Part shown: positions 2,062 through 53,447 of the stretch, piece by piece
How positions within the stretch are numbered: the first letter of the stretch is position 1
Layout: each line of letters starts with the position of its first letter
Origin: an archaeon
Lineage (GTDB): Archaea; Nanobdellota; Nanobdellia; Woesearchaeales; GW2011-AR9
Assembly (NCBI GenBank): GCA_002688265.1
Contig: NZCK01000007.1
Coordinates: 33,685-97,684 of the forward strand
Length of the DNA: 64,000 nt
Direction: 5' to 3'
The notes under the pieces: generated by a model
The model's database searches: none
What the model was told of the DNA's origin: nothing
The model's input: only the letters and a program-made list of their open reading frames with translations
Translations under genes and position numbers: made by a program

Positions 2062-3321
2062 ATGAAAGAAGCAGTACGTCAAAGTTTGATTAAAGATGTA
2101 GATCGTGCAATTAATATTCTAAACGAAGACTCTTCTAAAGAAAGAAAAGATCTTCAGAGTTTAAGTGAACATGTAATTGGAGATGTTGCCTTATATCGTA
2201 ATGTTGATGCTGTAACACTGGCTATATTAATCTATTCCATCTACAAAACTCTTCCTTGTATCTCTGAAAAACAACAAGAGGAATTAGTTACTAGACTAAC
2301 AAAACTAAGAATACATCTACAGAAAAAACAGTTTACTAAGTATAATGACTCTATGAAAAGATTGTTTGAAATGCTGCGATTATGTAATTCACAGATTAAA
2401 ACACATATTCAAGATGTGTTCTACGCTGCTAAAATCAAAAAAGGAACAAACCTACTGGAACAAGGATTGTCACTGGCACGGGCAGCAGATTTAATGGGAG
2501 TTAGTCGATGGGATGTCCTACAATATGGGGGATCAAGCGTAACACAAACAGAACACAGTGAAAGTTGGCCGGCAGCAAAAAGGTTGGCACTAGCCCGCAA
2601 AGTATTTTCGGCTAACAGTCTCCACAAAGTATTGTTGGTTGATGCTGGACCAATAATAACTCTTGCTTTATCGCAATTACTTTGGGTTTTAAAACCACTC
2701 AAAGAAAAAACAGGTATGACTTTTTACATTACTCCTGCTGTTTATTCAGAGTTAGTTGAAAAACCACAAACAATTAAAAGATTTCAATTTGAAGCATTGC
2801 ATGTACAGAAGTTGATCAGGGAAGGCGTTTTAACAATGTATGAAAAAAGAATTAGTAAACAAGTAACTTCTAGTTTAACACGACTTGCTAACAATTCTTT
2901 TATGATTAAAGAAGGCCCTTTGGAAATATTACAAGCAGGTGAGCTGGAGACTTTGGCTCTATCCATTGAAACTAAAGCAGCGATGTTAATGGATGAGAGA
3001 ACTTTGCGTTTGTTAATTGAAAGACCAGAAGGAATGAAAAGATTACTTGAAGATCGGAAACGTAAGAAAGTTAAGAAGAACCCCAAGAAGTTAAAAGAGT
3101 TTCAACAACTAGCTGGTCGTCCAGGGATTATTCGCTCAATTGAAGTGATTGCAGTTGCTTTTGAGTTGGGTTTGCTTGATCCTTATTTGCCAACAGAAGG
3201 TGATCTTTCTTCTCGAAGGGAAACCTTGTTAAAAGCAATTTTATGGAATGCTAAGTATCATGGGGCTTCTGTAATTGATCATGAAATTGATGAATTGATA
3301 AGAGGAGTTTTGGGGAAGTGA
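2062..3321 (+). CDS. Helix-turn-helix plus PIN-like nuclease domain protein.
   Basis: HTH-like segment LSLARAADLMGVSRWDVLQY. PIN-like core is LLVDAGPIITL ... EALHVQKL ... GELETLALSIE ... LMDERTLR, with the acidic residues in PIN-typical spacing. Ends with TGA. Confidence 0.5.
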   Translation: MKEAVRQSLIKDVDRAINILNEDSSKERKDLQSLSEHVIGDVALYRNVDAVTLAILIYSIYKTLPCISEKQQEELVTRLTKLRIHLQKKQFTKYNDSMKRLFEMLRLCNSQIKTHIQDVFYAAKIKKGTNLLEQGLSLARAADLMGVSRWDVLQYGGSSVTQTEHSESWPAAKRLALARKVFSANSLHKVLLVDAGPIITLALSQLLWVLKPLKEKTGMTFYITPAVYSELVEKPQTIKRFQFEALHVQKLIREGVLTMYEKRISKQVTSSLTRLANNSFMIKEGPLEILQAGELETLALSIETKAAMLMDERTLRLLIERPEGMKRLLEDRKRKKVKKNPKKLKEFQQLAGRPGIIRSIEVIAVAFELGLLDPYLPTEGDLSSRRETLLKAILWNAKYHGASVIDHEIDELIRGVLGK

Positions 3322-3342
3322 AAGTTATTATTCTCACAGTAG

Positions 3343-3486
3343 ATAAGGGCGAACGCGCGGCCCTACGCTAAAGCTTTAAATGTTTGACAAAGCTTGCGAT
3401 TTCGACCTGAGCGAAGCGAAGCTGAGAAGTGGAACCCAAGCCCGGCCGCGTTCCGAGCGTTTGTTGTACAAACGCGAAGCCTTATC
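3343..3486. ncRNA. Conserved GC-rich structured element, copy A. It is homologous to 53277-53425 in inverse orientation.
   Basis: Terminal helix gataagg/ccttatc. Inner long helix gggcgaacgcgcggcc with ggccgcgttcc. Internal hairpins aagcttt...aaagctt and cgtttg-ttgta-caaacg. It shares gggcgaacgYgcggcc, tcgacctgagc, gcgaagYtgagaRgYggaac, gcccggccgcgttccgag and cgaagcc with the reverse complement of copy B. The outer stem covaries between copies (ttggggagg/cctccccaa in B). Confidence 0.45.
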
Positions 3487-3547
3487 TACACCAATTTTCT
3501 TCTATTACAAGAGTAACTTATTTAAATTATTAAATTCTTGATACCGT

Positions 3548-3764: not shown

Positions 3765-4532
3765 TCAATTTCTAATTGGTCTTTCTTCTAACATTTCTAA
3801 AAAGGAAGTTAAGGCTCCTGGTTTAGTTTGTTTTGAGAATGGAAGTTCTCTTACTGAGATATATTTATTTTTGTAGTTACCATCAATTCTACAACTGATA
3901 CTATCAACCCTAATTGAAAAAACTGATTGGCCACCTACAAAATACCTCCCTGAATTACTACCTAATTCAAAAGATAAATGACCTTGATCTTCTCCTTCTT
4001 CGTGAGTCCAAGATCGCCAGTGCCTTGAGTCATAAGAAGGGTCTCTGTTATGTGCTGGAATAATTGGGCTTGGAGAAAACAATATTCCTGCTGTGCTCTT
4101 AATCCGATGATAAGGCTGAGTTGGTCCAGAAATATCTGGAACAAGAAATCTAGCAGCAAGTTTTTGACGTTCACCGATAGGAAACTCAATTGCAGTTAAA
4201 AAAAGATCCACTTGTTGAATACCAATCATTCCTAAAAAATTAAAATATGGAGTTGCATCACTTCCACAAATTTCAGTAACAGATGCCGAAAGTTCTGCTT
4301 CTTTTGCTAATAATTGTTCATCAGTGACTCTTTGGTATGACCCCCAATCCAAATAACTTATCCCATAGCTCCCACTTAGTTCAGTAGTGAAAATCTTAGG
4401 ATTCTCATTAATTACTTCTGCACCTTCACCACCAGTCTCTGGAAGTTTTAATCCTTTAAGTTCAGTTAGAAATGAAGGATACCAATCTAGAAAATTAAGA
4501 ATCTTAGCTTCAATTCCTTTAACATTTTGCAT
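3765..4532 (-). CDS. Hypothetical soluble protein.
   Basis: 255-aa ORF with an AGGAAG-like spacing before the start. No motif I can assign with confidence. Confidence 0.45.
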   Translation of the reverse strand: MQNVKGIEAKILNFLDWYPSFLTELKGLKLPETGGEGAEVINENPKIFTTELSGSYGISYLDWGSYQRVTDEQLLAKEAELSASVTEICGSDATPYFNFLGMIGIQQVDLFLTAIEFPIGERQKLAARFLVPDISGPTQPYHRIKSTAGILFSPSPIIPAHNRDPSYDSRHWRSWTHEEGEDQGHLSFELGSNSGRYFVGGQSVFSIRVDSISCRIDGNYKNKYISVRELPFSKQTKPGALTSFLEMLEERPIRN

Positions 4533-10767: not shown

Positions 10768-10877
10768 GGGACTGTAGCTCAGCGGGAGAGCGCCAGACTG
10801 AAGATGCTCAAAAATCAGTGGTTTTTGGCCAATCATCTGACATCTGGATGTCAAGGGTTCAAATCCCTTCAGTCCCA
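10768..10877 (+). tRNA. tRNA-Phe (GAA) with an intron of about 38 nt at the canonical 37/38 position. No encoded CCA.
   Basis: Acceptor gggactg/cagtccc plus discriminator A. D-arm gctc...gagc. Anticodon stem ccaga/tctgg with loop cuGAAga. The stem is interrupted by tgctcaaaaatcagtggtttttggccaatcatctgaca. T-arm aaggg-ttcaaat-ccctt. Confidence 0.8.
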
Positions 10878-11458: not shown

Positions 11459-13699
11459 TTATCCTAGCGTATTCTGCAACACAACACCAGCAAATAAATT
11501 GAACAGAATAATTACAACACCTGCAATCATACAATACAAACCAACACTCCTGGTTAAAGCCTTCCCAAGCGCATAACGTTCTCCTTGCTTATCAACACCA
11601 TTCTCAATACCATTAGCAAGCACAGTTAGAATATAAGCTAACTGAACTATGTAAATTCCCACAATCACCTGAAAATGAAATGTAGGAATACCAATTCCAA
11701 AAATAGTCACAAGGCCTCCAAAACCAGTACTCTCTCCACTACTTGAAAATTGAGATAACTGAGAACTTAATTTGGTTAGTACAGTTGAAATCATAGAAGT
11801 GATTCCAACCACAATTCCGGCAATCGCAGGAGTTAAAAACGCAACTTGTGCTTTCATACTTCCAATTACTTCTGCCATCAAATCTTTTAGTCGCTCTTCA
11901 ACTCGATGAATCTCTTTCATGTACCTGCTCATTGACAGAAGAGCTTGGGCAGCAATCAAAGGCCCACGTTTAATACTCTCAACTAAAACTTTCATAGAAG
12001 ACTCAATCACTTTTGAAGGATAAGAAACAACTGCTCCTACTTTGGGATCAAATAAAGATTCCTCCAAACCCATCCCTAACTTTAGAATATTTTTTTCAGC
12101 AAGGTTAAAAAATTCGCCAGAAGTTGAACCGCGCATTGTTTCAGCAACTTTAGCAAACGCAATCTCAGCCGGCAGACCATCACCTAATCTGTTCCCTAAT
12201 TGAAATAAGGCACTAGAAAATTCTTCTTCCAATTTCTTGGTGCGGTTACGGATCGCTATCACATTCTTGCTTCTTAATGAATAGAACAATCCTATCGACA
12301 ACCCAAAAGCTAAGATTACAACTAAAGAGAGTAGAGAAGCCCCCAAACCATAAGGACCCACCAAATCAGTGTCTTCACAACTTGCAAACTCAGGTGGACA
12401 AATATAACCCATCATAGAAATAGATTGATCCTCATTGGCAATTTCAAACCCTGGATCCACTGCGTGCAAGAGTATTGGACTCATACCAATAATAAACAAA
12501 AAAGCGAATAGAGTGATCGCGAAATAAAGGGGGTTAACTGCAAACTGAAAGTTTTTCCCTAAAGGAATAATTACGTTTTCATATCTCTTCAAACCAGGAT
12601 GACTTTTTACAGGGTCAGCTCCACCATAACCACTAGGCCTTTTTGAGAGAATTGTTTTTCCCAGATAAAATACTCCTACTGGCAATGTGATGTTATATAG
12701 CAAAGAAATGTAAATTGCCATAGTTAAAGTAGAAGTATCGCTGCTACTCATGAAACTTACAACTAATGGCAAAATTACCAAACCCAAAATTGGTAGGATA
12801 ATACCAAGCATATTCAGCATGGTCATTGGAGCCTTAAGATTATGCGCGTATCTTAGCATACCTTCGTATGTTCCGTCGAGGATCACATCCAAAGATTTGT
12901 CCAGAAGAGCAACTCTTCGATCATCACTTGGTTCTAATAAAGAAGATTCAATTAAATGAAAAGCTTCCACAAAATCACTATTCCACTCTTTCCAAGTTTC
13001 AAGGTAAGTGTCTGCAGAATCTTTGATTGATGAGAACTTTCCATTCTCTAAATCCCAAAGCATTTTTCGAAAATCAAGAGAAAGTGGAGCATCTAAATGT
13101 TCAGCTGCAAAAGCAATTGCCCTTTCTAGGTTAGAAGTATGGCGCATATAAGTTACTAAATAAAAAACACTTTGCACCATTTGATTACTTGCCTGAATCC
13201 TCCATTGATCAGCAAAAAATTGAGGTATCTTTTGGAAGGCAAAAATCATGGCCATCCCAAAAAAGATACAAAAGAAAACTAGAAACATCATATTAAAAAT
13301 TGCAAACGCGATTAAAGAACCAAATACAATAAACAGCATTGGCACCATGAATGATAGAGCTATTACTCCACTTGGGGTGCAGTTAAGATGACATGTTTCA
13401 ATTTGTTTAGTTAAGGTGGCAGCTTGTTTAGCATCAACCTTAAGTTTGAAAATAGATTCTGCTTTGTTACAAGCCTTTTCATAGAATGTAAAATGAGCAG
13501 GATAAATCTCTGACTTAAACTCTGAGTATTCACGGCTACCAACTGGAGTTGCTCCGGCACCGTCAGCTGAGACGCCAACATCTCCAAATTCAGCTTTGAT
13601 CCGCTCTTTATATTTAACTAAAATATCACCATACTCTTCCTCCCCGGAATCATCCTGAACTGGCGCTAACTCATTAGGATCATTTGTTTCATCCACCAC
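11459..13699 (-). CDS. Type IV pilus / archaellum membrane platform protein (TadC/ArlJ/FlaJ-like, two T2SSF-type domains).
   Basis: 746-aa polytopic protein. Two TM clusters are each followed by an alpha-helical cytoplasmic domain of about 130 aa. The arrangement is typical of GspF/TadC-like platform proteins. Apparent GTG start. Confidence 0.55.
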   Translation of the reverse strand: MVDETNDPNELAPVQDDSGEEEYGDILVKYKERIKAEFGDVGVSADGAGATPVGSREYSEFKSEIYPAHFTFYEKACNKAESIFKLKVDAKQAATLTKQIETCHLNCTPSGVIALSFMVPMLFIVFGSLIAFAIFNMMFLVFFCIFFGMAMIFAFQKIPQFFADQWRIQASNQMVQSVFYLVTYMRHTSNLERAIAFAAEHLDAPLSLDFRKMLWDLENGKFSSIKDSADTYLETWKEWNSDFVEAFHLIESSLLEPSDDRRVALLDKSLDVILDGTYEGMLRYAHNLKAPMTMLNMLGIILPILGLVILPLVVSFMSSSDTSTLTMAIYISLLYNITLPVGVFYLGKTILSKRPSGYGGADPVKSHPGLKRYENVIIPLGKNFQFAVNPLYFAITLFAFLFIIGMSPILLHAVDPGFEIANEDQSISMMGYICPPEFASCEDTDLVGPYGLGASLLSLVVILAFGLSIGLFYSLRSKNVIAIRNRTKKLEEEFSSALFQLGNRLGDGLPAEIAFAKVAETMRGSTSGEFFNLAEKNILKLGMGLEESLFDPKVGAVVSYPSKVIESSMKVLVESIKRGPLIAAQALLSMSRYMKEIHRVEERLKDLMAEVIGSMKAQVAFLTPAIAGIVVGITSMISTVLTKLSSQLSQFSSSGESTGFGGLVTIFGIGIPTFHFQVIVGIYIVQLAYILTVLANGIENGVDKQGERYALGKALTRSVGLYCMIAGVVIILFNLFAGVVLQNTLG

Positions 13700-22072: not shown

Positions 22073-22642
22073 TCACCACTTCTTCTCAAACATCTTTCCA
22101 AAAGATTTCATGAAATTTTCTCCCTTAGATTTGTCTTTATCTGGATCACGGACAATGAACCACACTATTAATCCAAAGACTAAAATTATTATTAACAATT
22201 CCGTGACTTCACTACTCCACCAACCAAAAATATCATAAGGTCCAGTCCAGAGTCCTAAGGAGGCTCCGAATACATAAGCTACAAAACCAATAGAAACTAT
22301 TGCAATTAATGGAGCTGCAGCTTTGGCAAAATCTGTTCCAAATATACCCATCAATAAAAGTAACATAATTGCAGCAACAGAAATTAGAGAAATACTAGGT
22401 AAGGCGTTATTCATTACATCAACAGGGTCATATCCTAAAGGATAATTTCCAGTAATATGTGGTACCACAAACAGTAAGGCCAGAGTTAAAGCAATTACAA
22501 CTGAAAAATTCTTATTATCTTTAAACAGTGGCATTTTTGTTGCCACAGCATAGACAATTGTAAACACCAACAAGAATGGTAATAGAAAATCAACTACCCC
22601 CAAGTTTTGAAATAATTGTGCTAAATTTGAAAATGTTGCCAT
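22073..22642 (-). CDS. Paralogous membrane protein, copy 2 of a tandem triplet.
   Basis: MATFSNLAQLFQNLGVVDFLLPFLLVFTIVYAV. Same length class as its neighbours. Confidence 0.55.
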   Translation of the reverse strand: MATFSNLAQLFQNLGVVDFLLPFLLVFTIVYAVATKMPLFKDNKNFSVVIALTLALLFVVPHITGNYPLGYDPVDVMNNALPSISLISVAAIMLLLLMGIFGTDFAKAAAPLIAIVSIGFVAYVFGASLGLWTGPYDIFGWWSSEVTELLIIILVFGLIVWFIVRDPDKDKSKGENFMKSFGKMFEKKW

Positions 22643-46719: not shown

Positions 46720-46740
46720 AAAATTCTTTTGTTTAAGTTG

Positions 46741-46854
46741 TTGGCGCGCAGGTCCATTTGCCGAGATATACAAAATCACTGCGCAGTTGCCTTTCTGGCA
46801 CCAAGAATCTTCGATTGTTGAGTGTTTGGGGTGGCCCGGTCTGACCAGCGCCAA
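46741..46854. ncRNA. GC-rich structured element C (TTGGCGCG...CGCCAA-flanked). Related to element D.
   Basis: Terminal helix ttggcgcgcaggtc/gaccagcgccaa. It shares gatacaaaat...tgcgcag with the reverse complement of 62607-62737. It sits between convergent gene ends. Confidence 0.35.
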
Positions 46855-46883
46855 AACAACTTGATTTTTAATCTTAATAAAAA

Positions 46884-53089: not shown

Positions 53090-53276
53090 TTTAAAGTAAT
53101 TTTTAGGTTTTTTTCTTATTTGAAGACAATATTTAAATTCATTACTAAGTAATTTAGGAGAATTTTCGTTGAAACTAGCTAGCAATTAATATTTTAGCTT
53201 CAAAAGATTTAAATAAGTAAGATATATACATAGTTGTGAAAATATACTTTTTTGTATATTGGATTAGAGTAATTTA

Positions 53277-53425
53277 TTGGGGAGGCTTCGCTCGCTAACG
53301 CTCACTCGGAACGCGGCCGGGCCTAAGTTCCGCCTCTCAACTTCGCCTTTCTTTAAAAGGCTCAGGTCGAGATCAATGTTTGATTTGCTGCTTTGGCATA
53401 TTGGCCGCACGTTCGCCCTCCCCAA
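53277..53425. ncRNA. Conserved GC-rich structured element, copy B. It is in inverse orientation relative to copy A at 3343-3486.
   Basis: Its reverse complement aligns block-for-block with copy A. The terminal helix ttggggagg/cctccccaa covaries with A's gataagg/ccttatc. The overlapping 5' end of track ORF 53277..54218 is judged non-coding. Confidence 0.45.
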
Positions 53426-53447
53426 TAAAAACTTAGGAGAAAATAAC

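Follow-up and report, generated by a model that had tools for sequence, protein, structure and literature searches.

What are the two GC-rich islands that stand in inverted orientation in the 64,000-nucleotide (nt) stretch of archaeal contig NZCK01000007.1 analysed here (the window)? The window has a GC content of 34.7%, and just four 120-nt stretches in it reach a GC fraction of at least 0.52: two are the islands (3329-3482 and 53272-53429), the third is a Pro/Gly-rich coding sequence and the fourth is an intergenic island at 46733-46864. A first-pass annotation of this DNA had noted the pair as conserved inverted islands of ~145 nt, GC-rich in an AT-rich genome, and had proposed a candidate novel noncoding RNA (ncRNA) family. 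Both islands proved to be as described, and they belong to a real, structure-constrained family with four known members, which is restricted to a narrow marine DPANN clade and is absent from Rfam. We lean towards reading this family as a structured RNA derived from 5S ribosomal RNA (rRNA), for which the sense strand would be + for 3339-3498 and - for 53428-53274. Of the proposed label, the conserved RNA element with no Rfam match stands; "remodelled 5S-like family", unseen by 5S models, describes it better than "novel".

Two sequence blocks mark out the pair. The motif GGCCGCGTTCCGAG, with 3 mismatches allowed, has two matches in the window, at 3444-3457 (+) and 53305-53318 (-), where 0.35 are expected, and GGGCGAACGYGCGGCC likewise has two, at 3347-3362 (+) and 53403-53418 (-), where 0.02 are expected; neither is found elsewhere in the window. 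The two copies, w1 and w2 (~150 nt each), have exact blocks of 14-18 nt in common and are closed by an outer helix that differs in sequence between them (GUAGAUAAGG/CCUUAUCUAC in w1, UUAUUGGGGAGG/CCUCCCCAAUAA in w2) and is fully paired in both. Their features are given below; bit scores are for R1, a covariance model (CM) of the element family, profile positions are those matched by nhmmer in a haloarchaeal 5S profile, and z values judge Smith-Waterman scores against 500 dinucleotide-preserving shuffles.

3339-3498, + strand: full extent of copy w1, helix P1 through AAUUUU tract; matched by R1 at 139 bits.
3339-3348, + strand: 5' strand of w1 P1 (GUAGAUAAGG), pairing with 3480-3489; putative equivalent of 5S helix I.
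3351-3362, + strand: 5' strand of w1 P2 (GAAC-GC-GCGGCC), with the junction GC(GAA) ahead of it, pairing with 3444-3453 and invariant in all four members; putative equivalent of 5S helix II.
3400-3427, + strand: w1 arm P4 (UUUCGAC-C-CUGAG / CGAAG-CUGAGA), with tandem G.A pairs and a short tip that differs in length and sequence among copies; putative extra arm of the beta domain.
3431-3457, + strand: 5S-like core of w1 (GGAACCCAAGCCC-GGCCGCG-UUCCGAG), profile positions 48-74; z 3.2 (Haloarcula marismortui).
3454-3479, + strand: w1 side hairpin P3, with CCGAG...CGAAG flanks and two apex pairs that covary across members; putative shrunken equivalent of 5S domain gamma.
3480-3489, + strand: 3' strand of w1 P1 (CCUUAUCUAC).
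53274-53428, - strand: copy w2, the whole element, in which P1 UUAUUGGGGAGG (53428-53417) pairs with CCUCCCCAAUAA (53285-53274); R1 match of 178.6 bits.
53305-53332, - strand: 5S-like core of w2 (CGGAACUUAGGCCC-GGCCGCG-UUCCGAG), profile positions 47-75; z 3.3-6.3 with five haloarchaeal 5S sequences.

The other two members, L192 and L204, are named after the fetched loci that carry them. A 209.6-kb TARA Oceans scaffold carries a 100% identical copy of the 419-aa gene flanking w1; relatives of this gene bear the labels Nanoarchaeota or Woesearchaeota. A scan of 185,579 species genomes with the pattern GGCCGCGTTCCGAG-N8-38-CGAAGCC returned 58 chance matches in GC-rich bacteria and one true member, L192, at 1619-1774 in a DPANN metagenome-assembled genome (MAG; GCA_964439765.1) that is a relative at ~74% identity. 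A metagenome scan with a three-block pattern returned six matches, one of them a true member, at 5364-5522 of L204. As the RNase HII gene adjoining this member and a window gene share their longest contig (209,954 nt), we infer that L204 carries a third copy (w3), located on the same ~210-kb scaffold but outside the window. The CM search that the first-pass annotation had proposed, with R1 over ~330 kb of related DNA, found no copy beyond the known members; searches of IMG/VR for three conserved blocks and for the three-block pattern turned up only GC-rich phages matched by chance, and blastn against plasmid and phage collections found nothing similar.

Pairwise identity among the four members (w1, w2, w3 and L192) is 67-75%, and the three copies of the one genome are as distant from each other as from that of the other MAG. 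Blocks of 10-18 nt are invariant in members that are otherwise this diverged. Six w1-bearing contigs from different samples were 100% identical, so that population variation provided no extra covariation.

The alignment of the four members indicated a functional RNA fold rather than a decaying repeat, as had been claimed. P1 (10 bp counted, up to 13) is paired in 100% of cells and 7 of its 10 pairs are changed on both sides, which confirms that the outermost helix changes sequence yet stays paired. Outside P1, covarying pairs are found at the apex of P3 (two), in P2a (one; GCY.RRG / CUU.RGC) and at the tip of P4 (one). Over the whole structure 97% of cells are paired, none of 500 column shuffles matched the observed covariation, and pairing fell to 26-46% when partners were slid by 1-3 columns. 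P2 (GAAC-GY-GCGGCC / GGCCGC-GUUC) is without variation in the four members, and covariation therefore says nothing on it. The nucleotides flanking P1 (GCGAAC / CGAAG) are also invariant. P4 is built from UUUCGAC-C-CUGAG, a variable hairpin and CGAAG-YUGAGA, and P3 is flanked by CCGAG...CGA(A/U)G, so the same tandem G.A motif would be present in both arms. The helix order P1-P2-P3 appeared in the hand-drawn structure and in the RNAalifold consensus, a check that the first-pass annotation had suggested. Single-sequence folding was only modestly better than that of shuffles (z -2.4 and -2.9). In three of the four copies, P1 is followed after 9-13 nt by an AAUUUU tract.

What kind of RNA would this be? 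We compared the element with 5S rRNA because the order of helices is alike: in both, a terminal helix is followed by a junction, then by a GC helix and last by a 3' arm that has G.A pairs. A first comparison with 5S sequences gave a striking match solely to that of H. marismortui; the sequence used was 99.2% identical to the real gene in PLSDB. Real 5S genes were fetched for Haloarcula, Natrinema, Halarchaeum, Haladaptatus and Halorubrum, with Paenibacillus 5S as an outgroup. Against the five haloarchaeal sequences, w3 had z values of 6.0-10.3 (0 of 500 shuffles reached its score), L192 had 5.4-6.8 (at most 1 of 500) and w2 had 3.3-6.3 (0 of 500 for H. marismortui and Natrinema, 1-7 of 500 for the other three). 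The similarity of w1 was weaker (z 3.2) and was seen with Haloarcula (H. marismortui) only. Background scores were obtained for the reverse complements, for Paenibacillus 5S and for three GC-rich window stretches used as controls. The similarity was seen with the five fetched and two further archaeal 5S sequences, not with the controls, and on the sense strand only. For the best element-5S pair the Gumbel p was roughly 1e-6, and GGAACUUAAGCCCGGCCGCGUUCCGAGGAGCAC of w3 and GGAAGAUAAGCCCACCAGCGUUCCGGGGAGUAC of H. marismortui are identical at 26 of 33 ungapped positions. When the haloarchaeal 5S profile was run with nhmmer over 445 kb of DPANN DNA, L204 (E 0.041), L192 (0.24) and w2 (10) ranked top and w1 (E 48) was the weakest of the eight matches listed; all four members matched the same profile positions, on the sense strand.

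In 5S, the matched stretch begins in the helix III 3' strand, takes in loop B, the helix II 3' strand and loop A, and ends on the 5' side of helix V/loop E; in the element it extends from the 3' side of P2a, via the P2 3' strand and the junction, to the 5' side of P3. The order of helices and junction around it is equivalent, so its structural place is the same as in 5S. The matching signature is GGAAGUUAAGC / helix II 3' strand / GCGUUCC / GGGAGUAC; with its third part written as GCG(A/U)UCC, it shares ~80% identity with archaeal 5S rRNA (RF00001). Other likenesses surround it. The ends of archaeal 5S pair over ~10 bp (helix I) and evolve by compensatory change, as do those of the element, where P1 has 10-13 bp; a three-way junction (loop A) and a GC-rich 8-bp helix II occur in both, in the order seen in the haloarchaeal 5S consensus; and non-Watson-Crick G.A pairs occur in the element's 3' arm at the position of loop E. 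The first-pass annotation had excluded 5S rRNA, and this did not hold: the significant alignment with archaeal 5S falls on the very block that it quoted as "ggaac..gcccggccgcgttccgag", which has the helix II 3' strand on one side and, as in 5S, the three-way junction's 3' arm on the other. On these comparisons, an ancestry from 5S rRNA seems to us probable.

The element also departs from archaeal 5S in ways that would imply extensive remodelling. An A-rich linker and the base-paired 38-nt arm P4 are found in place of helix III/loop C, and the canonical 3' strands of domain gamma (CUCUGG-GAAA-CCCGG; helices V/IV) are absent. The invariant block GAU(U/C)UCGACCUGAG, predicted to be paired within P4, resembles (C)AUUUCGAACCCGG / CCCAUCCCGAACACGG minus one A. 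The invariant GAUUUCGACCUGAG and CGAAGUUGAG resemble the loop C motif (CAUUUCGAACCCGG or, as found in the fetched 5S genes, CCCAUCCCGAACACGG) and the motif GGAAGUUAAG, and a GAAGUUAAG-like motif is thus present twice. At the other end of the element, AGUGAGCGAAGCC of L192 and w2 resembles the haloarchaeal loop D region AGUGCGCGAGCC and is followed directly by the helix I 3' strand; it looks as if ~18 nt of domain gamma (helix IV, loop E and the helix V 3' strands) had been deleted. Neither ~85 kb of the scaffold carrying w1-w3 nor 148 kb of DNA from relatives yielded a canonical 5S.

Several observations weigh against descent from 5S. The element is longer (145-150 nt vs about 120), whereas its domain gamma, if P3 is that, is ~17 nt short (24-27 nt vs about 41 in H. 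marismortui). The loop C motif is approximate (UCGACC vs CCGAAC) and is base-paired in the element, and the three copies are ~70% identical and non-syntenic even at 92% RNase HII identity. The significant similarity spans ~33-50 nt only, the best nhmmer E is just 0.04, and the four members are non-independent tests of it. RF00001 was silent even at E<=10 on inputs of 166-351 nt; R2, a CM built from the five haloarchaeal 5S sequences, missed the elements with filters off; and R1 missed real 5S. The extra arm in the beta domain and the cut of domain gamma to 24-27 nt would explain why 5S covariance models miss the family, and with CMs failing in both directions the homology rests on ~33-50 nt plus topology. 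Finally, the antisense strand folds as well as the sense strand, with equal consensus folding energy on both, and the sequence upstream of the copies has no convincing archaeal TATA box at a constant distance.

The alternative that survives best, unlikely as we think it, is that the element belongs to an unrelated and undescribed family of trans-acting small RNAs (sRNAs), acting as a ribonucleoprotein scaffold or a regulator and encoded by movable paralogous genes, with a resemblance to 5S that is convergent or due to chance. Strong covariation combined with invariant single-stranded blocks would fit such a family, as would the lack of an Rfam match and the failure of all CM cross-tests with 5S. 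The arrangement CYGAG-hairpin-CGAAG, with tandem G.A in two arms, looks like a protein-binding module, and both relocation and the absence of a dedicated promoter are documented for archaeal sRNA genes (PMC6009581). What this alternative leaves to coincidence is the similarity to 5S, which is far beyond that of shuffles (z up to 10), is strand-specific and lies at the structurally equivalent place.

A second alternative, which we regard as rather improbable, is a selfish non-autonomous mobile element, a GC-rich palindrome inserting into AT-rich spacers in the manner of miniature inverted-repeat transposable elements (MITEs), enterobacterial repetitive intergenic consensus (ERIC) sequences or the GC clusters of yeast mitochondria. 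Pairing would then be kept for the sake of a DNA hairpin or a read-through transcript (for spread or stability), and the likeness to 5S would be a captured fragment or chance. The first-pass annotation had taken covariation as an argument against a mobile origin, which the genomic locations did not bear out. Copy w1 is a ~175-nt insertion relative to five relatives: its spacer has 226 nt in the window vs about 10-90 nt in relatives at 79, 76, 74, 72 and 70% identity, where the element is missing. Relatives at 92% RNase HII identity have nothing in the w3 spacer, where an 89% relative has an unrelated 112-aa gene, and the w2 site, beside GATase_4, is empty in locus L009. Copies w1 and w3 lie 17-20 nt after a same-strand gene and ~60 nt before another, and w2 and L192 lie between genes on the strand opposite to their own; relative to neighbours, copies occur in both orientations.

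Short relics are found elsewhere. A 17-nt relic of the element 3' end (UAGUGAGCGAAGCCUUA) lies at L211 5370-5386 and L212 1358-1374 (minus strand), in the spacer between DUF3368 and a 70-aa gene (the w1 site) and in the opposite orientation. In L007 (11127-11245), the 3' end of tRNA-Phe (ATCCCTCCGATCCCACTTTTTT) is repeated ~97 nt downstream, and the 76-nt insert between the two copies contains GUGAACAUUAGUGAGCG, a P3-like hairpin near-identical to that of L192; the arrangement looks like an attL/attR scar or a partial tRNA duplication. From the three checked syntenic sites, all empty in relatives, and the short relics, it follows that the family relocates. The gene family duplicates and relocates as a unit of ~150-175 nt, with at least three copies on one 210-kb scaffold, and the AAUUUU tract in three copies suggests that the moving unit includes its own terminator.

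These movements are what a mobile element would show, and other features agree with one. TA abuts the inverted repeats at both ends in three of the four copies, although TA/TA also simply lengthens the helix, and both strands fold equally well. GC-rich palindromic mobile elements of AT-rich genomes have reportedly been described. Against this stand first of all the ends of the element: a transposase requires conserved ends, and here the terminal inverted repeats are the least conserved part, with P1 differing at 5 or more of 10 positions (7 of 10 columns across the copies) and always paired. No direct repeat of >=8 nt that could be a target-site duplication flanks any copy, and no partner with the same 3' end was found in the 185,579 species genomes, IMG/VR or the plasmid and phage collections. 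Copies are very few (three on the 210-kb scaffold, one in the related MAG) and 25-33% diverged, which is not burst-like; the conserved core is asymmetric, with a side arm and long unpaired invariant stretches; and its similarity to 5S is on the sense strand alone. A classical MITE was rejected on the least-conserved termini, the lack of a flanking direct repeat of >=8 nt and the lack of an autonomous partner in these searches.

Known palindromic elements (ERIC, Correia and MITE-like sequences, and the MITE-like elements and mobile C/D sRNA genes of Pyrobaculum; PMC6009581) include some that resemble sRNAs. They are like the present element in being intergenic imperfect palindromes of ~130-150 nt that occur in either orientation, vary in presence between close relatives and can be co-transcribed with neighbours. 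The element is unlike them in that its ends are not conserved in sequence, target-site duplications of >=8 nt are lacking, and its few, deeply diverged copies share an asymmetric 5S-like core.

The last alternative, a guide or housekeeping RNA of a known class whose DPANN forms are poorly captured by models (H/ACA or C/D RNA, signal recognition particle (SRP) RNA, RNase P RNA, or an intron-containing or permuted tRNA), is largely refuted: Cbf5, SRP54 and Rpp14 genes are present in the lineage, w1 has a lower stem of 9-10 bp with ACA directly past P1, and a K-turn-like GA...NNN-GA is possible in P3 of L204 only, but L192 and L204 have no ANA box at a fixed position, the would-be guide pocket beside P1 is invariant while P1 varies, a RUGAUGA box is missing, w1, w2 and L192 do not conserve the K-turn, none of these families gave an Rfam match at E<=10, and neither of the two tRNAs that ARAGORN called in the window falls on an element. 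The first-pass annotation had likewise found a poor fit to H/ACA, no C/D-box consensus and no tRNA, in agreement with these results; it had also set aside SRP RNA and RNase P RNA, for which the sole evidence is the absence of an Rfam match. The Rfam scan that it had proposed returned no family at gathering score or E<=10 for w1, w2 or L204, and the chance matches were to ToxI, MIR5643, RAGATH-17, asR3 and CRISPR-DR33.

Individual candidates were rejected as follows. For an H/ACA sRNA, ACA follows P1 in w1 and AUA in w2, neither is there in L192 or L204, and the flanks of P1 are invariant; for a C/D box sRNA, UGAUGA is lacking in every member and the sequence upstream of CUGA is invariant. A small open reading frame (ORF) is excluded in that the reading frame is not conserved, w1 is frameshifted and no start codon is shared; a six-frame translated concatenate of the element had no protein match, and a HMMER scan with the 61-aa ORF of w2 matched, by chance, a repetitive Bacteroidetes adhesin only. 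The differences between copies are not adenine-specific, as a template and variable repeat of a diversity-generating retroelement would have it. P1 has no 3-4-3 bulge-helix-bulge of an archaeal intron, the junction lacks the CUGA of a hammerhead, the R box of an integron attC site is non-contiguous and of the wrong polarity, and a retron has no reverse transcriptase nearby. A riboswitch or other element of a 5' untranslated region is contradicted by two of the four copies, downstream of which no gene lies on the same strand. Boundary repeats of a 50-kb island were dismissed because the interval between w1 and w2 carries housekeeping genes.

How would a 5S-derived element compare with the 5S variants already described? 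In eukaryotes, extra 5S-derived copies have been dispersed to new loci as short interspersed nuclear elements (SINEs); the archaeal element differs from these in showing no reverse transcriptase, no poly-A and no target duplication of >=8 nt. Expanded 5S rRNAs (Halococcus/Halalkalicoccus, Thermoanaerobacterales and others; PMC7812874, PMC7530397) also have internally base-paired inserts and can occur as differing 5S types in one genome, but theirs is a complete canonical core, domain gamma included, that 5S models find, whereas the core of the element is trimmed and rewired. The 5S of Halococcus has a 108-nt insert (PMC7530397), and its match in our PLSDB search spans query positions 3-105 only. 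The normal and the expanded type may occur side by side, and there are 5S-like remnants that carry insertions (PMC7812874). Such remnants or pseudogenes in bacteria are, like the element, extra 5S-derived copies with large insertions outside rRNA operons (PMC7812874), but they have lost one or both termini and look dead; the termini of the element are paired by compensatory change and its core is invariant. RF00001 fails to find 5S in three of 208 complete Nanobdellota genomes, and one genome of that set carries six loci for it (bioRxiv 10.64898/2026.05.13.725050).

Other features of the window and of related loci were recorded alongside the family. The ~130-nt intergenic GC-rich island at 46733-46864 (+ or -) lies between convergent genes and has a terminal helix of 13-15 bp (AAGUUGUUGGCGC...GCGCCAAAACAACUU). 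R1 does not match it, so it was rejected as a member; at E<=10 Rfam gave a chance Histone3 match only, and it has no similarity to 5S. It is a candidate for a further ncRNA. At 10768-10877 (+) lies a tRNA-Phe(GAA)-like gene with a 41-nt intron (Rfam, 63 bits), which ARAGORN missed; its orthologue in the related MAG (L007 11066-11139) has no intron. The intron-bearing tRNA is one more sign that the DNA is archaeal. One ARAGORN call, a 90-nt tRNA-Ile(AAU) at 22139-22228 (-), lies inside a 189-aa ORF (22073-22642, -), has no Rfam tRNA match and is probably a false positive.

The conserved gene neighbourhoods into which elements have come also hold small lineage-specific genes with no Pfam match: a 255-aa gene at 3765-4532 (-) of the window, a 112-aa gene at L217 10626-10964 (-), in the RNase HII spacer, and 94-aa and 121-aa genes at L211 5656-6504. 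These intergenic spacers appear to be insertion hot spots. The 419-aa protein encoded at 2062-3321 (+) has a weak match to DUF3368 (PIN-like) and is conserved across the clade; half-length homologues (~230 aa) are widespread in Woesearchaeota and Nanoarchaeota, so the N-terminal half of the protein seems to be clade-specific. Free-standing genes resembling LAGLIDADG homing endonucleases recur at L009 16933-17574, L013 17782-18498, L208 12145-12798 and L217 3241-4257 and 8904-9923. The one in L208 abuts a tRNA gene matched at 12059-12163, and that in L009 is at the corresponding spot, after an acetyltransferase gene. Their recurrence is a sign of active small mobile elements in the clade.

If the family does derive from 5S rRNA, its remodelling may be pictured as follows. 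P1, the equivalent of helix I (10-13 bp), would be evolving by compensatory change with a loop A-like three-way junction retained, the invariant GC helix P2 (8-10 bp) would be helix II, and P3 would be the 3' arm. The 5S signature GGAA(C)UUAAGC / helix II 3' strand / GCGUUCC / GAG would have been kept. The beta domain (helix III/loop C) would have been expanded by the A-rich linker and the 38-nt P4 with its tandem G.A pairs, and domain gamma would have lost roughly its 3' half and refolded into a hairpin of 24-27 nt, with the CYGAG/CGAAG flanks kept. Such an RNA might still bind proteins that recognise helix I, loop A and helix II of 5S, namely uL18 and perhaps uL5.

Its role would be that of the lineage's own, aberrant 5S rRNA or that of a 5S-like paralogue. 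Within a 5S origin we favour the paralogue, on account of the half-deleted domain gamma, the paired "loop C" and the three ~70%-identical copies with their fast turnover of location. Helix I, intact and compensated, together with a helix II and a loop A that never vary, would fit the lineage's own 5S. That the rewired molecule is the only 5S rRNA of the lineage strikes us as unlikely. Taking both outcomes together, we propose only tentatively that this is a dispersing 5S-derived RNA gene family of Archaea, a prokaryotic counterpart of 5S-derived SINEs, or else the only 5S of its lineage. As a counterpart of SINEs, it would be a 5S copy that has lost half of domain gamma, gained an arm and spreads to intergenic sites under selection at the RNA level.

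5S rRNA is among the most conserved of RNAs, with few prokaryotic departures from its plan (Halococcus, some clostridia). With R1 and the four sequences, the question can be put directly to the test on marine metagenomes and TARA metatranscriptomes. If the RNA is ribosomal, it would be an unusual form of 5S that is invisible to standard annotation and to rRNA checks in the style of MIMAG (minimum information about a metagenome-assembled genome); as the only 5S, it would explain the "missing 5S" in some Nanobdellota and imply a ribosome with a half-deleted domain gamma. If it is paralogous or mobile, it would be the first 5S-derived RNA of this kind in Archaea.

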